DNA of 57,252 bases from a virus. Taxonomy: Duplodnaviria; Caudoviricetes. The position numbers were made by a program, and so were the translations under genes. The notes beneath the pieces were generated by a model that saw only the letters and a list, made by a program, of their open reading frames with translations, did not search any database and was not told the DNA's origin. Below, piece after piece: positions 1 through 56,828 of this stretch. Location of the stretch: IMG/VR virus record IMGVR_UViG_3300025128_000041, positions 1-57,252 of that record. One strand, 5' to 3'. The stretch's first letter is position 1. Each line of letters opens with the position of its first letter.

Positions 1-350
1 TATCATTAAAGTTTTCTAAAATATCAAACACAGGCCAATAACTCTTAAGGTGTTTAAACGTTATAACAACCTTATCGTCATTCCACGCTCTTCTTGCATA
101 CGGGCATGGAGACATCCCGTTATAACGGTCATCAGGCTCTTCCAGCCAATTAAAAGACCACTCTCTGATCTCCTTACGAATAGTATATTCTCGTATACTA
201 TTAGTTTTATTGGCTAAATATTCTAGCTTTGCCATAGCCTTAATATCATGTAGCTAATTTTGCTAGCCGTTCTTTCTAAAGTATTGAGTTCGAGCTGCGC
301 CGCTACCACGAGCAATTGTTTTAGGCTCACCTACTAAGCTGCCACCACTC
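1..350. repeat. Terminal overlap with 56594-57252 (allele lacking the 120-aa gene)
   Basis: 1-127 identical to 56594-56720; then scattered synonymous substitutions up to the ATG at 236/56828; 306-350 identical to the last 45 bases. Confidence 0.95.
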
Positions 351-10090: not shown

Positions 10091-10513
10091 CTAGTCCTGC
10101 GCATCATGGGATAGCAAACCGTTTAAACGATCCAATATCACCGTAGGTGAGTCTACTTGCTGCTCCACTACGTGCTGTTGCTCCACATAAAGACGGGAGG
10201 CTTTGCCTCTGTGGTGCTCTGCTTGGATAGCTGCGCTGTATTGCCCAGCAGATTTAGCCTCATCCCGAAGGGAAGCCAGCGATTCGAGGTGATCGGAGAG
10301 AGAAAGCGCTCTTTCTTCCTCCAATTCCTTAGATCTACGATCTATTAGCTCCATAACGTCCTCTCTTTTAACCAACTTACTCCCCAGCTTTGCTGGGTGA
10401 CCTGTGTATCCCGCCATACGTACCGCATCACTCTGTGTGTGGCCTTCGGCTACGTACCGAGCAAACAAGCGTTCTTTCACCGATGTATGTATATGAGGCA
10501 TAGCGCGATTCAA
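10091..10513 (-). CDS. terS: Terminase small subunit
   Basis: N-terminal HTH (KERLFARYVAEGHTQSDAVRMAGY), LRDEAKSAGQYSAAIQAEHHRGKA; upstream of terL. Confidence 0.75.
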   Translation of the reverse strand: MNRAMPHIHTSVKERLFARYVAEGHTQSDAVRMAGYTGHPAKLGSKLVKREDVMELIDRRSKELEEERALSLSDHLESLASLRDEAKSAGQYSAAIQAEHHRGKASRLYVEQQHVVEQQVDSPTVILDRLNGLLSHDAQD

Positions 10514-10559
10514 TGCAAAACTTATACGTAGTATAAAAACTTATTGGAATAAAAAATAG

Positions 10560-10591
10560 TTGACAAAGTTTAAACGATATGAGCTTAGTGT
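10560..10591 (+). promoter_or_regulatory. Candidate early promoter with GTTTAAAC in the spacer
   Basis: A-rich tract then perfect TTGACA (10560-10565); best -10 TAGTGT is at an atypical 20-bp spacing. Confidence 0.45.
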
Positions 10592-10598
10592 AATGGCA

Positions 10599-10900
10599 AC
10601 TGAGCGGCGGAGCTTCTCCATCTCCAGTAGCCCGATAGGTGTAGGCCACCTCCCCACGGATCTTGGGGTGCATCATGTTAACGGCGATGTGATGTTACAG
10701 CGAAGCTGAAAGGATGTCGGAACTGGGGCGTAGCGGTCCTTCGAGTCTCCCTCGATACCGCCAAACCAGTGGACAGCGTAGCTGAAATGTTGCGTGGCAT
10801 AGGAGATATGCCTCATGTCCGAGTAGCTAAGATTTCATCTTAGAGAGGCTTACGATAACGGTAGGCCACTACGAGATTAGATCTTGCTTGTTTTACAAGT
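10599..10900 (+). ncRNA. Candidate large structured non-coding RNA / early leader
   Basis: No convincing ORF; more than 10 hand-identified helices nested in multiway junctions (see findings). Confidence 0.6.
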
Positions 10901-10942
10901 GACAACCGTTTAAACTAGAGTTTCGCAACAAGGAGTTATCCT

Positions 10943-11572
10943 ATGGATAAGATATACAACGACCGAGAGCAGTGGTTAAACGCTGCCATCATCTTGCTCA
11001 TTAATGAGCTGTTCACACTTGCTGGAGTCCAACCGGCTGAATGGGAGTCGAAGAGATACGCAGTATCTTGTGGCTTCCCTATTGGATACAGAGGATCACG
11101 TACTGGCAAGGTGACCCTTGGTCAAGCTTTTGACCCCGCCACATCGTCTAACGGCACCGCTGAGATGTTCATCAACCCCATCATGGATGATGTGATCGAG
11201 GTACTGCTGGTGCTGCTGCACGAGATGGTTCATGTCCTAGTGGGTAACCATGAGGGACACAAGGGGCGTTTCGCAGTGGTTGCCAAGGCAATGGGTTTAA
11301 CCACCCCGCTGACGGCTTTGATGAGTGCCGAAGGCAAATACAATGCTACTGAGGAGCTTATCGCTAAGATTCGAGAGATTGCCGAAATACTCGGAGAGTA
11401 TCCACACTCGAAGGTTGACCCCCAGATGCGAAAGAAACAAGGCACCCGAATGCTTAAGATCTCTTGCACTGATTGCGGTTTTACCGCAAGAGCTTCTGCT
11501 AAATGGGTATCTTTGATACACAGCAATTCACCCTGCCCAGTGTGTTCATCAGCTACGCTGGTCACTGAGTAA
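10943..11572 (+). CDS. SprT-like zinc metalloprotease with C-terminal zinc ribbon
   Basis: LLHEMVH...GHKGRF zincin motif; C-terminal CTDC...CPVC. Confidence 0.8.
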   Translation: MDKIYNDREQWLNAAIILLINELFTLAGVQPAEWESKRYAVSCGFPIGYRGSRTGKVTLGQAFDPATSSNGTAEMFINPIMDDVIEVLLVLLHEMVHVLVGNHEGHKGRFAVVAKAMGLTTPLTALMSAEGKYNATEELIAKIREIAEILGEYPHSKVDPQMRKKQGTRMLKISCTDCGFTARASAKWVSLIHSNSPCPVCSSATLVTE

Positions 11573-28594: not shown

Positions 28595-29064
28595 TCAAAT
28601 TGTGTATAAGATTTACCGTCAAAGACTAAGGATTCGTTTCTGTTTTCTCCTGCTGATACATACGAAACATGAATCCACCCACTGTTGGGATCTATCCCGT
28701 CATAAAACTCTAAGATAAGCTGGTCATAATCCAAGTTATCTTTAATCCAGAACGCAACCTCTTCGTTGTCTACGCTTGGTAACTCAAAATCAATCGCCTG
28801 TCCTTTGCAGTGCTGGCTGTTAGGGTTGCCCCCAACCTCTGCATTCAGATCAGGGCAGCGATACCCACTGTTAGGTATAAAAGGTACGCCATAGTGAACC
28901 CTGACCGGCTCAACCACATACTCTAACACGCGCTTTAGGTTTTCAAGATGCTCGCCTGTAGCCATATTGTCTATGCCTTTACGAGTAGCTGTCTCGCTAC
29001 GGCAACATTCAGCTAATGTAAAATGATCACTTAATTTAGTCACTGAAACGCTCTTTATCGTCAA
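28591..29064 (-). CDS. Endolysin, peptidase M15A family
   Basis: LSDHFTLAE, SGYRC..LN..VGG..SQHCKGQAIDF, WIHVSY; start may be GTG 29043. Confidence 0.85.
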   Translation of the reverse strand: MTIKSVSVTKLSDHFTLAECCRSETATRKGIDNMATGEHLENLKRVLEYVVEPVRVHYGVPFIPNSGYRCPDLNAEVGGNPNSQHCKGQAIDFELPSVDNEEVAFWIKDNLDYDQLILEFYDGIDPNSGWIHVSYVSAGENRNESLVFDGKSYTQFE

Positions 29065-32000
29065 TTCGTCTTATAACTCCACGAGTAATTGCGCCAGCAT
29101 TTGTTAATGCCCTCTGCATCTCATCGTATTCAGACAACGTTTGTTGGTAATTTTGCATTCGCCTTCTGCGCTCTGCGGGAGTAATGCTTTGATCTCTAGC
29201 TATCCTTTTAATGTTACTTGTAACTTTACTTCTCTCTCTGTCAATGTAATACAAAGACACCCTGATTTGTTCCGGGTCAATATTGATAACGTTTAAACCA
29301 ATCATTCGCAACAGTGCCTGATTAACCGAGTCAGGCTCAAGACCTGTGGGCTTTCTAGTTCCCGATGTTGCATCAAACAATTTTTTAACTGCGCCATAGT
29401 CTGTGTTTAAAAACCCCGGCAGTATGTATTGGTTTGCCGCCCAATAAAAAGCATCAGTTAATTTGCCTCTATTATAAAACGGCCTTTCTTCTGCGTTTGC
29501 AATCCACCAAGGATCATGCGCATTAACTATTGGTTGCTCGGTAAATGGATCTTTGTTGTAAAGAACCCCGCTTACTAAAGACCAAGCCGGACCACCAAAC
29601 ATACCAAATGTTGAAGTCACATCTGACAGCTCAAATCCACCTTGAGTGTAGTCTCGTTTTCCAGCAACAGCTTTTCCTGCATCTATCATTTTAGAGCCTA
29701 TGCCAGTAAACGCACCCCACGGATATAAAAAGCTAGTATCTAAAAACTTTAATCGGCCCTTATCATCTCTATAAGGAAGAGGCATTAGTCCGGGGTTGCC
29801 CCTCAAGTAATCAGGAACAGACGCTTTAATCGCTTCGTACTCATCATCGTCTATGTCAAATGCAGACATCATTAAATGTGGCATTGCATAAGAAAGAGCA
29901 ACATATGGCGCGAATTTAAGCGGGTTATTAATAGCAGTCTTCATTAAGACCGGAAGAACCTTGTACTGGAAAGTAATAAAAGGAATACCAAAAGGGCTAG
30001 TCCTTGTCTTCCTAACCCAGCCGGGAACGTCAGAGTAATCAAATAAATACTCTTGCGCTCTAAGAAACGCATCGTCTGCGCTTAACCCTTCACGCTCCAT
30101 GACATCAATGGCAATCGCTGTCTTGCCCATAACCTCTATGTTCTGATACATATTAGATGCTTTGGTAGCCAGCTTTCCCCAAGCCTTTAGCTTTAACCAC
30201 CCGTACAAACCTAAATCTTTTGCATCTACACCCCCAAGAAAATCCATAATGTCATCTGACATCTTTACTAGTTCTTGGTCGGCAAATGATGACTGCGTTA
30301 CACCGCGCTCAACCAATGCCATGTAATGCCTAGCATTATCATAGTCACGGTTGTTGTATGCGCGTATCTCCCCAATAGCTTCAACCATCCTTGGCAACAC
30401 CTTATAAAAAGGTATGCCAGATAGGTGCATGAGAATCATATTACTGAATGTGTTCCGCGCAATCGTTGGGGGGTTAAGAGGAACCTTTATTGTTTTCCAA
30501 ACAGCAACAGATTTCTTAAACAAGCTATCCATCTGAACAACTGTGGTATCACCTACATTTGCAATCGCACTAGAAGCAACTACGTCTTCATATATTTCAT
30601 CTCTAACTAATCGACCAGCAAGCATCCCAAACTTGCGACCAGCCGGAACACGTTTAAACCCTCTGAAGTATTTTGTTCCAGCGGTTTTAAGCTGTTCATC
30701 TTCTAGCTTAGTTACATCTATTCCGTCATTTGCATCTGCATACTCTTTATATTTTGCTGTTGCAGCAGCCTCCATACGATCCGCTTCTGCGTTTAAACGC
30801 TCTGACTTTTCAGGAGATAAACCTTTTTCTGCTTCTGCTATTTTGCGTAACGTGTCAGCCTCGTTACTTAACCAGAACGCGCTTACTTGTTTTGTTTTTC
30901 CATTAACATCTTCATATGAAACAAGAAACATATCATCAGGGCTTGTCCAATTTTCGTTTTCACTTACAGCATTAAGAAAGTTAATTAACTCTAAATCTCT
31001 TATAGATCTTTGCATTGCTCTTGAAGCCAAAAATGCTGGATCTTGTTCTGCTATTTCCCCAAGAAGTTCTCTTGATGCTTCTGGTAGGTTCTTGCTTCTT
31101 TCTTTAAGGTACTCAAGAGCTTTGCCTGACGGATCTTCAATGATGTGCTTAAGGTAAAGCCTTGGAAGATATGACCTTTGATTCTCCATATAAGTCTGAG
31201 GAGACATTAATCCTTTAGCAACTAACTCTGCGCCAACGTTTTCTATAACGTCTTTTGCTTTAGCGGATGCTTTAGCAGCTCTTGGATCTAAAGCGTTCAG
31301 CGCATCAAATGCAGTCTGCTCTCCTATCGAATCACCAGTAGTCATATAGGTATAAATAGCATTGCGAATTAACGCATTGCTTTCTCTGGCTTGAGCGCCA
31401 ACACCTTTAGCTAAATACTTATTCCCTATTTCATCTCTTAAATACTTAGCAGCATTTTCTGCCTGTGCAATAAGCCCTCTAAACTCCCCGCGCTTAAGAT
31501 AATATTCTCGTTTTTGTGGAAGATCTTTAAGGGTATTAAAGAACGGTATTGAATCAATAAATTCCGTTATTGATTGCCTTCCCGTCTTACTCATCTCATT
31601 TCGTGATGCAACCCCTGCGTTTGTAGCAGTATTGCGATCATCTTGCTTTGCCATCTGGTAAATGGCGTAAGGCTCTGATCTCCAAGACGCGCCCTCATCA
31701 CGCATCTCATCAGTAACTTCAAACAAAGGAAGTGAGTTAGTAATCGCAGACTTGCGAATTAAATACTGATCTCTTTTATCTTCAGCTAAATCTAGTATTT
31801 GCTGATCTAAGCCAAACACTTCATCTGGATCTACATCAGGATTTGCTCTAGTTGCTATATCCTCAACAAGCATTTCTTTTGAGGCCAATTCTTTTCTAGT
31901 TTCTCTTTCTGCCGGTATAAGCCTTTCGCCTTCCCATTCCAATTCTTTAATGTTGGTTATAATTGCTTGTTGATCTGCATCAGCATCGCCTATGTATAAG

Positions 32001-35000
32001 ATAGATCCTTGGTTATCATTACGCACCTTGCTTTCTTTTTTCTTTATTGTAGAACCAAGAGCTTTAGCCAAGGCTTTGGGCATCATGCGGTCATATATGT
32101 TGGTAAAGCCAGAACCCACAGGATAATCCACCGCGCCATCTGCCCTACGTTTTGCGTCTGATATTGCTTTAGCTATGTCAGCATCATCTAATATACGCGA
32201 TCTATTAACTGCATCTTCTGAGTCTTCTTGCCCAGAATTTATTCCTTCCCTTAAACTCATCAACTCATCGGTTTTACTGTTAATAAAATCCATGACGTTA
32301 TCAATCGCAATCTCTCTACCGGGGAAGCTAGCCATTTCGTCTTCAACAAGTTTAAACAGCCCGGTTCCCAAGAAATCATCCAGCATCCCACCTGCCGAAT
32401 TGTCAGCGAGATCTAATGGTTTGTACTTACCAAATAAATAGGTGCCTCTATGTATGGATTCTTGTGCGCCGGTAGCCATATCAAACACTGGAACCGTATA
32501 AGAAACTCGATACGCATTAACTAATTCTGGATAAAGCTCTGCTAAAGATTCCTGCATTGAAAGCCGTGGAATTATTCTGGGATCTATGTTTTCTAGTGTT
32601 CTATTTTCAGCGTCATATCCCTCAACTATCTTAATTGAATCTATATCAATAGATGTTTTGTTGGGTAGGTCTTCAAATGTTTTTGCTAATATAAGCAGCG
32701 TGTCTTTTTTAGCCTGTTCTTTGTCTGGATACTGTTTCAGTAGTTGGTCAATGTATTCAGGCTCTAATGGGCCAAGCTCTTCTGCTTCATAAACAAATCC
32801 TTGCTCATCTATTTCTGGAGCATCCTTCATAAGCAGATCTATATTAGCTTCTACTTTTTGCTGAATGTAAGAAGTAGGAATATCGGCGTAATACAAACCC
32901 TTATCGCCGTCTTTAATTAAATTGGAAGCTTCTAGTTTGCTGATTCCATAAATAGACTCTAAGTCTCCAGTGTCAAATGAAAATCTCATTACAGGATTAC
33001 CAGAAGCATCAAACGCTGATGATACTTTATGCGGCATAGAAGAATTCCCATCGTCAAGAATCACTGTCTCTGCTACTGCTATACCATCAATGTGGTTTTT
33101 AAAGTTACCTCTATATCTTTCTAATTGAAGCTCGCTGTTAGACACTGCTATATGGCTATACCCACCATTAATTGCCATCCTAGTAATACCGTTCATGGCA
33201 AACGCCATTCTTTGATCTTCATTTTTTAATGGCATATTAGGAAGAATAGGCCCATAAACTTGATCTTTGTATGAAGGCGCATTCTGCTTAACTAAGTTCT
33301 TTTCATCCCTAGATAGCTTGTCGAAATCAGGCTCACTAATCCTTCCTTCTTTAAACAAATCAAAAGCTGCCATCCTTTTCATAATGGATTGTGCTTCTTG
33401 GTGTAGATCTGATTGTATTTCTTCCACGATCAGTATCTTTTTCTGATCACCATTTTCGTCAGTTACATACACATCGGACAAACGTATGTGCATTATCGGA
33501 TTAACAGTATCTCTGAAATGCGCGTGAACATACTGACCAGTTGCAGTTAACCCTCCAGCGCCTTGCTTCCACTTTGTATGTTGTTCTTGATCTACCTTAG
33601 TAGATGACGCAAGAGGCGCGGATATAATCACTTCTCTGTAGTTTAATGAGTTATCTTCTAAATAGTTATGTAACGCTGACCTTCTATTTTCAGGGTTTTC
33701 AAGAGCATCGCTTAATGCAAGATTCCTAGCCCCGGTAGATGTGTATGGCAAATATGTCCCACCATAATCCGGCCCCATTTCCATGCCGCTTCCCGGCTCT
33801 ATAGACATTTCCGTGTCACCAACATCCGGCATACGCATATGACGATCTGTCATACCAAAGCCTAACTTCATTCGTCTTAAGGCAACCGTTGCTGCTTGAG
33901 GCGAAGCCAAGTCTTTTGCTTTAGCTAGCTGCTTTTGCATATGCTTGGTTCTTCTTGGCCTAGCCAAGTTCAGGTTATAGTCATCTTTAGCTTTTTCTAA
34001 TATGTTTAAATAGTGCATCGGCATATCTAATGAAGGTATAGACGCTTCGTGTTTACCAATGCCATCGTTATAATTGGATGGGTTTTTAAATGCACTCATT
34101 AATGAGTTAGCGCTTGGATACGAAAGCCACATTTCTGCAATGTTTCCAGAAGTAAGCTCATTGGCTGGGCTAGCTAAATCTTTTCTAAGCTGTCTTTTTA
34201 TTGGAGCATAGTATTGATTTGCGAGTTCTTTATATTCTGGAACAGTAATTTTGCCATCAAACAATTCTTCAAAAAGCTGAAAATCTACAGCTTGTGATTC
34301 ATCAAGAAGCTTTGCCAGCTCTGGCGAAAACATTGACTTGACATCTTTATTTTTACTTCCTTTTGTTTGCGCGTCATATACATAACGAATAGTGTTACCT
34401 ACAAACGCAGAACTAATTGCAGGGTTCATAAGTAACCTGCCCATATTCTTTTTGATTTCTGCTTCACGGTCATCTAGAAACGCAAGGGCAACTTTGTTTT
34501 CATTCGTTGGATCGCTCATTGAATCTAACGGAGTGCCGTAAATATTAACTTCTATTAACACTTCGTTTTCTTCAATCTCTTCAATAAGCTGACTAGCAGA
34601 CACTTTTACATTCTCGCCTCCTTTAAGCTTTTGATCCTCAAGAAACTGAACGATTCCAGAGTCTTCTATCTCTGCTAGCTTAACGTCTTTAGTAAGAAAC
34701 CCTTCCAACGACCCATCTTCATTCCTTCTAATCCAGTCATTAGCTGGCTTAGACCCCCCGGCTTTATTAATTTTATCCTTAAGAACTGAGTACATCATCG
34801 GTCTAACAAAGTCAGACTGAGCAATTCTAGCTGTTGCATCACCCTGCTTAACCATAGCTAAAGGCGTTGTTCCACTCATGCCCTTCTTATCAGACATTCT
34901 TCTTGGCGCTCTAGCTCCTGCCCTTCCCTGTCTTATTGACTCGAATACTTCTTCAAGCTCCATAATAACTTCGCCATCAAACGCAGACTTAAGCTGTTTA

Positions 35001-38000
35001 AACAGGTTAATAATTTTATTAAATATTCTGCGTAGCGGCGGAGTAAATTCTCCGGGTATCTTCCCAGTAACATCTAAGCCACGGTTGTACAGCGCAGAAG
35101 CATACGCAACCAGCTCATCAATCTGTTTATCTGGCGGGATAATCTCAATAGCATTGGCGTACTTTCTATCACCCAAATGTTTGCGAACAATGCTTTGAAG
35201 CCTTGGTATATTAGCCCTTAAGGAATCCATCTCTTTATCATTAAGATAACGATTACGCATTAAGAAGTGAGTTGCCTCGTGATACGCCCTGTTTTCTGGG
35301 TCTAAAAATCCATCTTGAGCTGATACAGCAACTACGTTTCCTATCTGAAGGCCCAAGGCTTCTTCTTTTGGGATTACTTGTCCGTTATGCTCAACCATTG
35401 TCAAAGCGTCTGGCATCGACAATGGCCTACTAAATATTTGATCCGCAATCACTAGGTTTGCTTCGGGGGCTATAGACTTAACTATTCTGCTTACCCTAGT
35501 TTGCTGATTCATATCCATTCTAATTGGCTTGGTAGAGCGTAATATTACTGGCTGTCCACCAACCTCTGTTCCTTCTACCCCAACCACAGGCACAGCTTCT
35601 TCTACAGCCGCACCCTGTATTCGCATAAAGTCTGGATCGGCATCAAAGATTAAGTTTTGGATTTCATCTGACCCAGATATTTCTTCTATAGCGGTAAATA
35701 CATCTATACTTGGGTTGTCTGCTTTTAACGTTCTGTACTGATCTGCTGCAACTTTATATATATTTGCAATCGCGCTCTTGCCAATACCTTGAGGCAACAG
35801 CTCCTCTATACTTTCTCTAACAGCTCCAAGCTCATCTGTAGTAGGTTCGTTTTCGTTGCGAGATTCTTTGTTATAAAACTTAACGGGTATTTCTATACCG
35901 CTAAACTCTTGGCCTATGTTGTCTAAAGCTGTATTAACATCTAGCTTAGAAGCACTACGCTCGTCTACAACTTTGCCGTCTTGATCTAATATTTGTATAT
36001 CATATTTCTTTGAACGCTTATTATATTTAGGCTTCATAAGCGTTAAGGTCTGAGGAGCCTCGTCTTCTACTACCTCTTCAACAAGATCCTCTGTTACTTC
36101 TTCAACGACTGGCTGTGTTTCTTGAGGTACAACCGTAGGTACAGTAAATACTTCCTCGTTACGCTTCCTAGCAGCCTCACCACGCTTCTTAACTTCTTCG
36201 GCTACCTTACTACCACGGCTACGAAGTTCAGCCTCTGACACGCCCGGAAAAGCCGCCTTGAGTTCTTCGATAATACTTGCATCTTTCTTTGACTTATTGA
36301 CACCGTCTCTAACAATGTAAAGCGCCTTATCAGAAAGCGACTCAAACTCTGGAGTTTCATCTCTATATCTAGGCTTTGAGTTCTCTACATCTTGCGAATA
36401 AAATTCTGTTGGAGCAGCTTCTTCTTCTACTACTTCTTCAACAACGCTTTCACCAATAGGAACAACGTTAGGTTTGCGTCCACTAACGTAATAATCATTA
36501 GGAACTATAAACCCAAACTCTTTGGCATAATCATTAATTGCAGAGTCTGCATCAGTGGCATACAACGTTGCACCAGCCATTGTCTTGTAGCCAAACTCAT
36601 TGTTTTTATCTGGTCTGCTTTTGTCTACAACAACAACTCTATACCTAGCTTCAATGTTTTGTTCGGGAATCGCGTCTTGTATTTTTTCAGGCTTTAAAAG
36701 CTGATAAACAGGTTGTCGCTTTGTTTCCTCTTCAGTTTTGCTATCTAGCTCATCAGCTCTCTGAGATACTTTTTCTTGCTCTTCCTTGTCAAGCTTCCTG
36801 TTTAGTTTAATACTTCTAGCTTGCTCGATAACCGCTATATTTTCTTCTGGCGTAAGACCTTCAATTAGGTCATCTGCCTTTACCTTCTTTTTACCTTTAG
36901 CTTTGCGAAGCTCATCAACACGCTCGACACCAATTGCCTTAGATATAGCTGTAAGTTTTTCTCCCGCAGTTAGGTTGAATCGTTTAAACAGTTCTTGTAG
37001 GTTTGTGCTTTCTTGGATGTCTTTTAATGCTTGATCTTTTCTTGCTTGCCCTACTTCATCAACAGCATCTTTGGTTGGAGCTTTTGGATCAAAGTAAGTT
37101 TCAGTAAGTTTATCTCCACCTATCTCTGCTAAATTATCATTGATGTCATCCGCATATTGTCCAGAATCAATCTTGCTTTGTTTGTCAGCACTTCTTAATT
37201 CATCCTCTGCTCTAGGATCTACATCCGCAACCTCAAATCCTCTGCGATCAAGCTCCATACCAATAGCTGTTAAGTCATACAACTCCCTTGCGTTTAAACG
37301 GCTTAGATCTGTTTGCTCGTTAGCTTCTGTTTGGCTTATTTCACCATTAGCAACTCTTTCTTTTAGGTCATCAGTTAATACTATGTCATGTCCTAACTGT
37401 CTAAGCTGCTCTGGCTCCAAAGTTCCAAGCTCTACACCGCCAATCTTGTATTTGCCGGGAGACGATAGCGACTGATTGCTAGCAAAAGAATATCCATCTT
37501 GATTTGGATGGCTATCTAATGGCAGAGATAAGACAACACCATCTTCATCAATAACTTCTGCAACACCCTCTTCTTCGTTTACCCTAGAAATCGTGACATC
37601 TATCTGCTCACCATTAGCATCGTAAGCAGGAACAATATCTCCGCTAAGAATTTTCTCTTCAAGTAATGTTGTGTCCACAACTTCAATTGGATCAGCTTCA
37701 GAGTATTCTTTCTGAACATCCTTATCACTTCTTGAGGGCTTGCTTGGAGTACGTTTGCCTATAACTAGATCAAGTATTGCTGCTGCGCCAGCACCATACC
37801 CAAAATCAGAAAGCATACTATCGCCAATAGGACGCTCTGGATCATAGTTATATTTAGCGGCAAGTTCTTGCAACACCCCTGACAACGCTTCTTGTGCGCC
37901 CTCACCTGTAGCATTTGCGCCTAATCCAGTTACTCTTCTTAATATTTCATTCTTTATTGGATTGGCAAGCTCTTTACCAAAACCTCTTAATATCATTTCT

Positions 38001-38842
38001 GGGCCAATAAGTTCTAATGCACCTATCGGTATGCCCCACATTATAGCTTGATTTCTTTGACCTATTGTGTAATCACCGCCAGCATCTTTATATGCTTTCA
38101 TCATCTGGCTTGCCTGACCTGACCCGGAACCAACAGCAGCAGCTCCTTGTAAGCCTCTAAATCCTATAGCCAAACCTTTAGCTCTTTTAGCTGCATTTGC
38201 ATATTGAGCGCCTTGAGTCATTAAACTAGCAGCTTTCCCGGCTTGACCAATAGCTCCAATAGCGGGAGCCATAATTGTTAGCATACTACCAACAGCTTCG
38301 CCTAACTTACCTACAACTGTTCGTTCATTACCTACCCATTCACGAGCTTCATTTAGATTCTTAAATGTTTCTGATGTTTCAGGATCTATAAGATCTTCAT
38401 ACCCAGCAACATTTGCTGCTACATCGGCTATAGAAAATAAACCCTCACCTATAGAAATAGCTGACTGTGCGCCGCCGCGACCAATACCTCTCGTAAATGC
38501 CCAAAATGGATTATCTGATTCATCTAACTCCTCAACGGTAGTAGCAGGATCTGCTATAACACCTGATGGAGCGCCGGAAAATAAATCCATTGCTGTTAAA
38601 TCTTCTCTCGGTGTTAACTGAGGAGGAGAAGGCATAGCTTGTGGGTAGAGTATTGGGTCTGGTTGCGGCTGTGGTTGCGGCATACCTGTGTAACTACCAA
38701 GTATGCTTCCGGGTTCTATCTCAGGAACCTCATAAAATTGAGGAGTTGCCTGTCTAGGGGTTATATAATTTACACCCCTAGATAAAGGCTGGCCTTGAAG
38801 CCTACTAATTAATGCCTCTAGCCTTTCTTCTTGTGTCGCCAT
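29036..38842 (-). CDS. Giant internal virion/ejection protein, polyvalent-like (3268 aa)
   Basis: Last gene of the ejection cluster; HEATH zincin motif, HIR...EEIQSD motif, helical C-terminal region with PFITFQYK. Confidence 0.75.
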   Translation of the reverse strand: MATQEERLEALISRLQGQPLSRGVNYITPRQATPQFYEVPEIEPGSILGSYTGMPQPQPQPDPILYPQAMPSPPQLTPREDLTAMDLFSGAPSGVIADPATTVEELDESDNPFWAFTRGIGRGGAQSAISIGEGLFSIADVAANVAGYEDLIDPETSETFKNLNEAREWVGNERTVVGKLGEAVGSMLTIMAPAIGAIGQAGKAASLMTQGAQYANAAKRAKGLAIGFRGLQGAAAVGSGSGQASQMMKAYKDAGGDYTIGQRNQAIMWGIPIGALELIGPEMILRGFGKELANPIKNEILRRVTGLGANATGEGAQEALSGVLQELAAKYNYDPERPIGDSMLSDFGYGAGAAAILDLVIGKRTPSKPSRSDKDVQKEYSEADPIEVVDTTLLEEKILSGDIVPAYDANGEQIDVTISRVNEEEGVAEVIDEDGVVLSLPLDSHPNQDGYSFASNQSLSSPGKYKIGGVELGTLEPEQLRQLGHDIVLTDDLKERVANGEISQTEANEQTDLSRLNARELYDLTAIGMELDRRGFEVADVDPRAEDELRSADKQSKIDSGQYADDINDNLAEIGGDKLTETYFDPKAPTKDAVDEVGQARKDQALKDIQESTNLQELFKRFNLTAGEKLTAISKAIGVERVDELRKAKGKKKVKADDLIEGLTPEENIAVIEQARSIKLNRKLDKEEQEKVSQRADELDSKTEEETKRQPVYQLLKPEKIQDAIPEQNIEARYRVVVVDKSRPDKNNEFGYKTMAGATLYATDADSAINDYAKEFGFIVPNDYYVSGRKPNVVPIGESVVEEVVEEEAAPTEFYSQDVENSKPRYRDETPEFESLSDKALYIVRDGVNKSKKDASIIEELKAAFPGVSEAELRSRGSKVAEEVKKRGEAARKRNEEVFTVPTVVPQETQPVVEEVTEDLVEEVVEDEAPQTLTLMKPKYNKRSKKYDIQILDQDGKVVDERSASKLDVNTALDNIGQEFSGIEIPVKFYNKESRNENEPTTDELGAVRESIEELLPQGIGKSAIANIYKVAADQYRTLKADNPSIDVFTAIEEISGSDEIQNLIFDADPDFMRIQGAAVEEAVPVVGVEGTEVGGQPVILRSTKPIRMDMNQQTRVSRIVKSIAPEANLVIADQIFSRPLSMPDALTMVEHNGQVIPKEEALGLQIGNVVAVSAQDGFLDPENRAYHEATHFLMRNRYLNDKEMDSLRANIPRLQSIVRKHLGDRKYANAIEIIPPDKQIDELVAYASALYNRGLDVTGKIPGEFTPPLRRIFNKIINLFKQLKSAFDGEVIMELEEVFESIRQGRAGARAPRRMSDKKGMSGTTPLAMVKQGDATARIAQSDFVRPMMYSVLKDKINKAGGSKPANDWIRRNEDGSLEGFLTKDVKLAEIEDSGIVQFLEDQKLKGGENVKVSASQLIEEIEENEVLIEVNIYGTPLDSMSDPTNENKVALAFLDDREAEIKKNMGRLLMNPAISSAFVGNTIRYVYDAQTKGSKNKDVKSMFSPELAKLLDESQAVDFQLFEELFDGKITVPEYKELANQYYAPIKRQLRKDLASPANELTSGNIAEMWLSYPSANSLMSAFKNPSNYNDGIGKHEASIPSLDMPMHYLNILEKAKDDYNLNLARPRRTKHMQKQLAKAKDLASPQAATVALRRMKLGFGMTDRHMRMPDVGDTEMSIEPGSGMEMGPDYGGTYLPYTSTGARNLALSDALENPENRRSALHNYLEDNSLNYREVIISAPLASSTKVDQEQHTKWKQGAGGLTATGQYVHAHFRDTVNPIMHIRLSDVYVTDENGDQKKILIVEEIQSDLHQEAQSIMKRMAAFDLFKEGRISEPDFDKLSRDEKNLVKQNAPSYKDQVYGPILPNMPLKNEDQRMAFAMNGITRMAINGGYSHIAVSNSELQLERYRGNFKNHIDGIAVAETVILDDGNSSMPHKVSSAFDASGNPVMRFSFDTGDLESIYGISKLEASNLIKDGDKGLYYADIPTSYIQQKVEANIDLLMKDAPEIDEQGFVYEAEELGPLEPEYIDQLLKQYPDKEQAKKDTLLILAKTFEDLPNKTSIDIDSIKIVEGYDAENRTLENIDPRIIPRLSMQESLAELYPELVNAYRVSYTVPVFDMATGAQESIHRGTYLFGKYKPLDLADNSAGGMLDDFLGTGLFKLVEDEMASFPGREIAIDNVMDFINSKTDELMSLREGINSGQEDSEDAVNRSRILDDADIAKAISDAKRRADGAVDYPVGSGFTNIYDRMMPKALAKALGSTIKKKESKVRNDNQGSILYIGDADADQQAIITNIKELEWEGERLIPAERETRKELASKEMLVEDIATRANPDVDPDEVFGLDQQILDLAEDKRDQYLIRKSAITNSLPLFEVTDEMRDEGASWRSEPYAIYQMAKQDDRNTATNAGVASRNEMSKTGRQSITEFIDSIPFFNTLKDLPQKREYYLKRGEFRGLIAQAENAAKYLRDEIGNKYLAKGVGAQARESNALIRNAIYTYMTTGDSIGEQTAFDALNALDPRAAKASAKAKDVIENVGAELVAKGLMSPQTYMENQRSYLPRLYLKHIIEDPSGKALEYLKERSKNLPEASRELLGEIAEQDPAFLASRAMQRSIRDLELINFLNAVSENENWTSPDDMFLVSYEDVNGKTKQVSAFWLSNEADTLRKIAEAEKGLSPEKSERLNAEADRMEAAATAKYKEYADANDGIDVTKLEDEQLKTAGTKYFRGFKRVPAGRKFGMLAGRLVRDEIYEDVVASSAIANVGDTTVVQMDSLFKKSVAVWKTIKVPLNPPTIARNTFSNMILMHLSGIPFYKVLPRMVEAIGEIRAYNNRDYDNARHYMALVERGVTQSSFADQELVKMSDDIMDFLGGVDAKDLGLYGWLKLKAWGKLATKASNMYQNIEVMGKTAIAIDVMEREGLSADDAFLRAQEYLFDYSDVPGWVRKTRTSPFGIPFITFQYKVLPVLMKTAINNPLKFAPYVALSYAMPHLMMSAFDIDDDEYEAIKASVPDYLRGNPGLMPLPYRDDKGRLKFLDTSFLYPWGAFTGIGSKMIDAGKAVAGKRDYTQGGFELSDVTSTFGMFGGPAWSLVSGVLYNKDPFTEQPIVNAHDPWWIANAEERPFYNRGKLTDAFYWAANQYILPGFLNTDYGAVKKLFDATSGTRKPTGLEPDSVNQALLRMIGLNVINIDPEQIRVSLYYIDRERSKVTSNIKRIARDQSITPAERRRRMQNYQQTLSEYDEMQRALTNAGAITRGVIRRIDDKERFSD

Positions 38843-56198: not shown

Positions 56199-56828
56199 TT
56201 AATTTTCCTTAAGTTGTTTATAAAACTGTTCTCTTAATTCAAAGATATGAGATGGCTCTGAATCTTTAAACATGGCTTCATAATATCCAGTAGGCTTTAA
56301 CTTGTAAGCGGCTTCTTGCAACTTATCAAGCCTTTGGATGAATATCATGGCATATATCTCTTCTTCATCTGGCGGGATTAAAAGACTGCTTGTGTCATAC
56401 TTAACAGGAGCATCATCTTCATAATCAAGCATTCCTTCATGCTCTTCATCATCTGGATGAAAACCCATTACCCAAAGATTCTTATCACCAAATGCACCAT
56501 TAGCTATTCCATGATTAATGCCAATTAATCTTTGATGAAACTCTTCAGGCTCTTCTTGATACTGCGTATCTGCAATAATCGTTAAGTCTTTGTTATCATT
56601 AAAGTTTTCTAAAATATCAAACACAGGCCAATAACTCTTAAGGTGTTTAAACGTTATAACAACCTTATCGTCATTCCACGCTCTTCTTGCATACGGGCAT
56701 GGAGACATCCCGTTATAACGATCATCAGGCTCTTCTAGCCAGTTAAAAGACCACTCTCTGATCTCCTTACGAATAGTATATTCCCGTATACTATTTGTTT
56801 TATTAGCTAGGTATTCGAGCTTTGCCAT
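56199..56828 (-). CDS. DUF1415-like protein
   Basis: PCPYARRAW, VMGFHPD, IFIQRLDKL; start set at MAKLEY, the point where the two alleles converge. Confidence 0.6.
   Translation of the reverse strand: MAKLEYLANKTNSIREYTIRKEIREWSFNWLEEPDDRYNGMSPCPYARRAWNDDKVVITFKHLKSYWPVFDILENFNDNKDLTIIADTQYQEEPEEFHQRLIGINHGIANGAFGDKNLWVMGFHPDDEEHEGMLDYEDDAPVKYDTSSLLIPPDEEEIYAMIFIQRLDKLQEAAYKLKPTGYYEAMFKDSEPSHIFELREQFYKQLKEN

Follow-up and report, generated by a model that had tools for sequence, protein, structure and literature searches.

The gap between the small terminase gene and the first early gene of an uncultured marine phage raises the question of whether it encodes an RNA and, if so, what that RNA might do. 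We addressed this in a virus record (IMGVR_UViG_3300025128_000041; Duplodnaviria, Caudoviricetes), the whole 57,252-nucleotide stretch of which is called the window here and is about 96% complete. An earlier note, made from the sequence alone, had proposed a multi-junction structured RNA of about 300 nt in this gap, and the observation held: positions 10596-10886 on the + strand are a conserved, strand-specific structured RNA, which related phages keep through compensating mutations and which matches no known RNA family.

Sequence and folding of the intergenic region

The element lies in the divergent gap between the terminase small subunit gene (10091-10513, - strand; Terminase_2, E 4.8e-05, 24.5 bits, just under the curated cut-off of 26.1) and the first gene of a rightward module. 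This module holds a SprT-like zinc-ribbon protein of 209 aa (10943-11572, + strand; PHROG 6361, with phage relatives annotated as SprT-like protease), a MoxR/CobS-like AAA ATPase, DUF7192, small ORFs, an HNH protein and an HTH protein, whereas the structural genes and the primase-helicase are on the other strand. The first 127 bases of the window (1-127) recur exactly at 56594-56720, indicating that the record is terminally redundant or a circular assembly, although it is classed as linear. All of the motifs and coordinates listed in the earlier note were present, although three details of its description needed correction, as described below.

We first searched for known RNA families, a comparison that the note had named as a test. 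None of the 4227 families of Rfam 15 reached its gathering threshold in this region, and positions 10400-11000 gave 0 matches even at E<=10. The only match in the whole window was Mu-gpT-DE (RF03012; 60.6 bits, above its gathering score) at 1753-1804 on the - strand, downstream of a capsid-region gene. When the loci of six relatives were searched at E<=5, only two matches to miRNA families were detected, with 24 bits against gathering scores of 64 and 100. One of them, in the viral locus L002, lies outside the element and the other, in L027 (1709-1769), lies downstream of the core. ARAGORN found 0 tRNA or tmRNA genes in the whole window, and a DNA similarity search against 50,697 deposited phage records gave no match.

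We then compared the folding energy with shuffled sequences, since energy no better than shuffles had been set out as grounds for rejection. The + strand gave -108.5 kcal/mol (z -2.53, 1 of 100 shuffles as good) and the - strand gave z -1.16 (14 of 100), while two relatives gave z -1.65 (L021, 6 of 100) and z -4.03 (L004, 0 of 100). Folding energy alone is thus only moderate evidence, and the weight of the case is comparative.

Homologues and covariation

To obtain homologues, we used the SprT-like protein as an anchor (206 homologues) and retrieved 80 viral loci. As a result, nhmmer found the element upstream of the SprT-like gene in 27 of 81 viral loci (L002-L028). A motif pattern added 22 true viral hits of 25, the other three (L094, L100 and L106) being chance matches, and also gave 11 true hits among the first 120 metagenome stretches. 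None of the first 120 stretches from genome contigs was real by nhmmer, but neither of these two scans ran through its collection, so absence from cellular genomes is not shown. The sequences fall into three groups of uncultured marine phages: group A (the window, L002, L128, L207 and L222), group B (L004-L006, L162 and L224) and group C (about 20 distinct sequences).

Since MAFFT and RNAalifold on all groups together misaligned the variable arms, we built a covariance model, R1, on group C with a hand-derived structure and let it align the rest. R1 matched the window (43.4 bits, E 6e-10) and groups A and B over its whole length, giving 35 matches in 38 sources, 29 of them distinct. In contrast, R1 hit 0 of 54 other SprT-bearing viral loci (L029-L082) and 0 of 5 of their whole records, three of them at least 95% complete. 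Among simple core motifs, only the short word ACGGCGG turned up, in 4 of these 54 loci. R1 also found nothing in the whole records of the cultured phages nearest by large terminase, DSL-LC04 (58.8% identity) and HTVC027P (54.3%) (0 of 2).

Covariation among homologues, the next point on which the proposal could have failed, was decisive. On the shared core, 97.1% of 1505 cells pair, against 83.1% when shuffled and 26-47% when the partners are slid. Furthermore, 30 of 56 pairs change on both sides, against 17.1 in shuffles and 4-8 in slid controls, and the covariation score is 0.344, against 0.119 and 0.02-0.06, respectively. None of 500 shuffles reached any observed value. The alignment was fitted to the structure of the model and the sequences form three clades, so the shuffle counts overstate significance, but the slid controls and the variety of pair types are less exposed to that; for example, one pair of the long arm reads G-U, U-G, G-C and C-G. 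Within group A alone (5 sequences, full-length structure), 98.2% of cells pair and 5 pairs change on both sides, against 0 in all slid controls. Seven of the 56 core pairs are mostly G-U or U-G and would be mismatches on the other strand, so the + strand is the folded one, as the note had inferred from G-U pairs, and the fold z-scores of the two strands agree.

The core is 97.9% identical between the window and L002, while the flanking genes are 85.1% (SprT), 88.4% (terS) and 88.7% (AAA gene) identical, pointing to selection at the nucleotide level. We also examined whether the antisense ORF 10428-10676 is the conserved feature, a result that would have counted against the RNA. L002 has no counterpart of this ORF, and differs by a 2-nt deletion, a 1-nt insertion and a 1-nt deletion inside the small window ORFs of this region (40-82 aa). 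Groups B and C carry large indels. Thus, on neither strand was an open frame found to be kept in relatives with substitutions that respect codons.

Architecture of the RNA

The RNA spans about 291 nt (10596-10886, +), its 5' end being predicted from the promoter and its 3' end taken from where the group-A relatives stop being alignable, since downstream of ...GATCTTGC (10886) they carry unrelated sequence. In the 5' domain (10599-10628), a helix not listed in the earlier note, P1 (ACTG 10599-10602 with CAGT 10625-10628), encloses the hairpin H0 (GGAG-CTT-CTCC, 10609-10619). P1 reads ACTG/CAGT, ACAG/CTGT and ACGG/CCGT in group A, CCAAGC/GCTTGG in group B and ATCGACGG/CCGACGAT in group C, and H0 reads TGACC/GGTCA or TGGGC/GCCCA in group C.

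The core multi-way junction (10632-10720) is closed by P2 (CCGAT 10632-10636 with GTCGG 10716-10720), which varies only by C-G/U-G and A-U/G-U changes. It holds HA (AGGTG/CACCT, 10637-10651; stem nearly invariant, loop TAGGC), HB (CCCCA/TGGGG, 10652-10668; 4 of 5 pairs with two-sided changes), HC (CATCAT/GTGATG, 10671-10694; 7 of 8 pairs with two-sided changes, invariant loop ACGGCG at 10681-10686) and the variable hairpin HD (CAGC-GAA-GCTG, 10698-10708), which has 4 bp here, is absent in group B and is a 40-nt arm in group C. The joining strand AAAGGATGTCGG (10709-10720) is nearly invariant, its fourth base being T in 2 group-C members. A scan of all column pairs for pseudoknots gave only short stacks of 3-4 pairs that track the three clades, and a CCCA/UGGG pairing between the H0 loop and the strand after HD exists only in group C and is thus not claimed.

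The long arm P3 (10722-10770) consists of the base ACTGG/CCAGT, GCGGT/ACCGC and TCGAG/CTCGA, with a conserved asymmetric internal loop (GGCGTA opposite CAAA). Its base helix has 5 of 6 pairs with two-sided changes, reading CTCTGT/ACAGAG in group B and GGCGGT/ATCGTC, GGCGTT/AGCGTC or GGCGCT/AGCGTT in group C, whereas the outer part differs in length and shape between groups and the tip is variable. In the next domain, P4 (10771-10820), GGACA/TGTCC encloses GCGTAGC-TGAAAT-GTTGCGT (P4a; GCGTAGC 10776-10782 with GTTGCGT 10789-10795) and GGCATA-GGAGA-TATGCC (P4b, 10796-10812). Within group A, two-sided changes occur in 2 pairs of P4, 1 of P4a and 1 of P4b, and RNAalifold predicts the same fold. The second copy of the CAGC-GNA-GCTG module of the note falls here (CAGC-GTA-GCTG, 10774-10784), but this hairpin shares its C and A with the GGACA/TGTCC helix, and the substitutions in relatives are better explained by the latter together with P4a.

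Finally, the 3' three-way junction (GTAG/CTAC, 10823-10872) encloses CTAAGAT-TTC-ATCTTAG and GGCTTAC-GATAACG-GTAGGCC, and is followed by the small hairpin GAGAT-TAG-ATCTT (10873-10885). These stems never vary in the 5 group-A sequences, the differences falling in loops and joining strands, and by our direct reading group B has the same layout with different stem sequences (GGTG/CACT, AACAATAT/ATATTGTT and GCTTTCAC/GTGAGAGC). The loop-only changes and the shared layout support the junction, but the minimum-energy fold prefers an alternative long-range pairing here, so this part is the least certain. Indeed, the window has two copies each of AGAT and ATCTT (10873-10885 with 10827-10843), and the 3' part can fold either as two local hairpins or as a nested long-range helix, which may be a conformational switch, although no covariation supports it.

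Genomic context and expression

Upstream of the RNA lies a predicted early promoter (10560-10589, +), with the -35 TTGACA (10560-10565), GTTTAAAC in the spacer (10568-10575) and a weak -10 CTTAGT (10584-10589) after 18 nt, from which the predicted start is near G10596. A promoter scan did not call this site in the window itself, but in group C it called TTGACA-18-CATAGT with 10 of 12 matches. The element is always preceded by TAGTTGACA...GTTTAAAC and a -10-like hexamer 18 nt after the -35, and the -35/GTTTAAAC block is conserved in all three RNA groups and in RNA-less relatives. The note had also described GTTTAAAC as bracketing the element (10568 and 10908), but this 8-bp palindrome occurs 47 times in the window against 1.3 expected from base composition, spread over coding and intergenic DNA about every 1.2 kb (for example at 10568, 10908, 11574, 12731 and 13595), so its flanking position is not special to the element. 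Relatives have 48 (genome G001), 38 (G002, 42 kb), 29 (G006) and 13 (G003, G004) copies. The palindrome is unexplained and may be a site for a phage DNA-binding, modifying or nicking protein.

Relatives with the same SprT-like operon but no RNA have the TTGACA-GTTTAAAC-(-10) promoter only about 50-78 nt upstream of the SprT-like gene, followed by a shared AATCGCAAC leader and the ribosome-binding site (RBS). RNA-bearing phages keep the same promoter and the same leader with the RNA in between, one copy per genome; the RNA therefore looks like a module inserted into the 5' leader of the early operon in one clade. In the window, the region after the RNA (10892-10942) holds a second promoter-like site, TTTACA-18-TAGAGT (10892-10921; 9 of 12 matches), with GTTTAAAC at 10908-10915, the shared leader TCGCAAC (10923-10929) and the RBS AAGGAG (10930-10935).

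What follows the RNA varies. SprT follows directly in the window, L222, group B and part of group C, whereas in L002, L128, L207 (3 of 5 group-A members) and part of group C the RNA is followed by an extra small ORF whose RBS starts about 8 nt after it. These inserted ORFs, such as that at 1468-1737 of L002, differ between close relatives, so the 3' edge of the RNA (10886) is a mosaic junction. In group C, a covarying, terminator-like hairpin with a U-rich tail ends the RNA just before the RBS. In L021, two such hairpins (2153-2175 and 2426-2451), each followed by TTGTGTTCA, lie after the RNA and after an inserted ORF just before SprT, and look like a repeated intercistronic element of group-C phages. 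No such site follows the RNA in the window, and no convincing intergenic one was found in its operon.

We next looked for transcription, the absence of which had likewise been named as a reason to drop the proposal. Of three public runs that hold parts of the stretch, one is a seawater metatranscriptome, and its only contig on 10300-11700 is 218 nt long at depth 9.35, covering 10636-10854 and nothing on terS or SprT. This is a weak hint that the RNA is made and outlasts its neighbours, since it is one contig in one run, from contigs rather than reads, and DNA carry-over cannot be excluded. The other two runs are of unknown kind, hold only pieces and were not used as expression evidence. The interpretation in the earlier note, an early-expressed ncRNA or cis leader of no known family, is thus supported by the covariation on the + strand, the position directly downstream of a conserved promoter, the lack of an Rfam match, the non-conservation of the antisense ORF and this contig, while none of the functions it listed (put-like antiterminator, decoy, ribozyme) was tested.

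Possible function

The analysis itself establishes the fold of the core, its strand, its position between the conserved early promoter and the shared TCGCAAC and RBS leader, its single copy per genome and its restriction to one clade, while everything on how the RNA acts is inference. We consider that the region encodes a new family of large structured RNA (about 0.9 for a real functional RNA), made as the first part of the rightward early transcript of a marine tailed phage distantly related by its large terminase to HTVC023P-type pelagiphages. The six parts of its fold, in a row, are a 5' stem-loop domain, a four- or five-way junction with nearly invariant loop and joining nucleotides (TAGGC, ACGGCG and the strand AAAGGAUGUCGG), a long arm with a conserved internal loop, a second junction domain, a 3' three-way junction and a small terminal hairpin.

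Our best guess, at a probability of only about 0.38 (0.35-0.4), is that the RNA acts in cis on the transcript or on the polymerase that makes it, setting how much transcription or expression proceeds into the early genes by processive antitermination or attenuation, like the put or EAR elements. The promoter-proximal position on the operon's strand, the group-C hairpins, past which downstream genes need read-through, and the immediate RBS favour this reading. As for terminators to be read through, they are present in group C after the RNA and before SprT but not convincingly in the window, which leaves this feature undecided; neither RNA-dependent read-through nor binding to the elongating polymerase was assayed. 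Against this reading, relatives that lack the RNA run the same operon from the same promoter, so the RNA is not needed for basic expression, and, with no terminator-like site after the RNA in the window and a second promoter-like site before SprT, in this phage the RNA could be its own transcription unit. The window's own -10 is also weak, and the scan did not call the promoter. Known RNA antiterminators are several times smaller and simpler, and a multi-domain RNA of 290-400 nt is more than that job seems to need. The contig confined to the RNA fits a stable released RNA at least as well.

Nearly as likely, and equally tentative, is a stable, trans-acting immediate-early ncRNA, released from or terminated ahead of the early mRNA, which would bind a host or phage protein as a scaffold or as a decoy or sponge for a defence or takeover target. 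In addition to the contig, the terminator-like hairpin ending the RNA in group C and the second promoter-like site following it in the window, its size, many domains and invariant loops resemble protein- or ligand-binding ncRNAs more than simple leaders. It is also the first sequence transcribed from the early promoter and an accessory module of one clade, as counter-defence genes often are. However, no partner was identified: a presence/absence comparison of window proteins between 2 RNA-bearing and 3 RNA-less genomes gave many clade-specific ORFs and no single candidate. One contig cannot show ends or abundance, and in 3 of 5 group-A members and in group B no terminator-like site separates the RNA from the next RBS.

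A riboswitch-like sensor, with the core junction as an aptamer for a small molecule or a protein and the 3' hairpins as the expression platform gating the early operon, is unlikely. The conserved, covarying fold is present, with a junction closed by the short, G-U-rich P2, nearly invariant joining nucleotides (AAAGGAUG) and invariant loops, although a fold alone does not make an aptamer, and the group-C hairpin before the RBS and the alternative 3' pairings could fit a platform. However, no riboswitch family matches, about 150-200 nt of further structured domains lie between the core and the putative platform, and no covariation-supported mutually exclusive helices were found; ligand binding was not examined. 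Since the gene that follows is SprT-like, an 89-aa ORF or other small ORFs depending on the phage, there is no consistent association with one pathway and no metabolic logic is apparent.

A self-cleaving or otherwise catalytic ribozyme processing the 5' end of the early transcript is still less likely. The junction and loop nucleotides stay invariant across relatives whose SprT proteins are only about 56% identical, and several small ribozyme classes occur in phage contexts, but no ribozyme family matches in Rfam, nothing in the data indicates a cleavage site, and the metatranscriptome contig runs uninterrupted through 10636-10854. Least likely is a DNA-level element (a packaging site, a replication origin or hairpin promoters), which the location next to terS, the co-occurrence of this terS type with the RNA-bearing clade and several 3-nt hairpin loops might suggest, because wobble pairs make the fold strand-specific, compensatory changes preserve pairing rather than sequence, the position between a sigma-70-type promoter and the RBS is conserved, an RNA-library contig covers it, and the 3268-aa virion-size protein (29036-38842, - strand; relatives share about 43% identity over roughly half of it), considered as a virion RNA polymerase that would have favoured hairpin promoters, gave no Pfam or PHROG match at all.

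Comparison with known RNAs

Like the put RNAs of phage HK022 and the EAR RNA of Bacillus, which are RNA-only processive antitermination elements, this RNA lies in cis at the head of a long operon directly downstream of the promoter, with terminator-like hairpins between it and downstream genes in group C. It is several times larger, with six domains, shows no sequence or model similarity to them, and the same operon exists without it in relatives. With riboswitch and attenuator leaders that have multi-way-junction aptamers, it shares the 5' leader position, the junction with invariant joining nucleotides closed by a short helix and, in group C, the terminator-like hairpin before the RBS, but it has long extra domains between the junction and the RBS, the downstream gene is not constant and no ligand is suggested.

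Among large orphan structured ncRNAs of bacteria and phages (GOLLD, ROOL, HEARO, raiA and OLE), it shares a multi-domain form with strong covariation, no assigned function and carriage by phages as an accessory element. It matches none of their Rfam models, is smaller than GOLLD or ROOL, and has a fixed promoter-proximal position in an operon rather than being a free-standing gene. The phi29 pRNA is also a phage-encoded structured RNA of a few hundred bases made from an early promoter, and the present RNA lies next to packaging genes, but this phage has a terS/terL terminase, no similarity or evidence of a role in packaging was found, and the RNA is oriented away from terS, into the early operon.

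Literature searches on HTVC023P and on structured RNAs in phages found no mention of this RNA. Candidate structured RNAs predicted from IMG/VR (Fremin et al. 2023, PMC10690425) come from the same kind of source, uncultured viral contigs, and rest on the same kind of evidence, covariation upstream of genes. The text examined mentions neither SprT nor this context and gives a mean candidate length of 67 bases, although, without the supplementary candidate lists, a fragment of this RNA among the 8495 candidates cannot be excluded. At best, the RNA works like put or EAR or like a riboswitch leader, but it is a member of none of these, having in common with them only its position and a conserved fold. 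We regard it as a new RNA class by sequence and fold, whose function could still turn out to be analogous to a known mechanism.

Large, well-folded RNAs of unknown function are rare, and past examples such as riboswitches, OLE, GOLLD/ROOL and HEARO have repeatedly led to new biochemistry. The present RNA has a consensus with strong covariation, a fixed genetic position as the first thing transcribed from the predicted early promoter, natural with/without comparisons among closely related phages and a size that suits structure determination. It is possible, although doubtful on the present evidence, that it is a new class of large phage RNA with an activity of its own, acquired as a mobile leader module by one clade of abundant marine phages. 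As the very first product of infection, it would then either reprogramme the host RNA polymerase that transcribes it, as an RNA-only antiterminator far more elaborate than put, or act as an RNA decoy or enzyme against a host factor. Since it occurs in uncultured marine phages related to abundant pelagiphage types, it may bear on how such phages take over their hosts.
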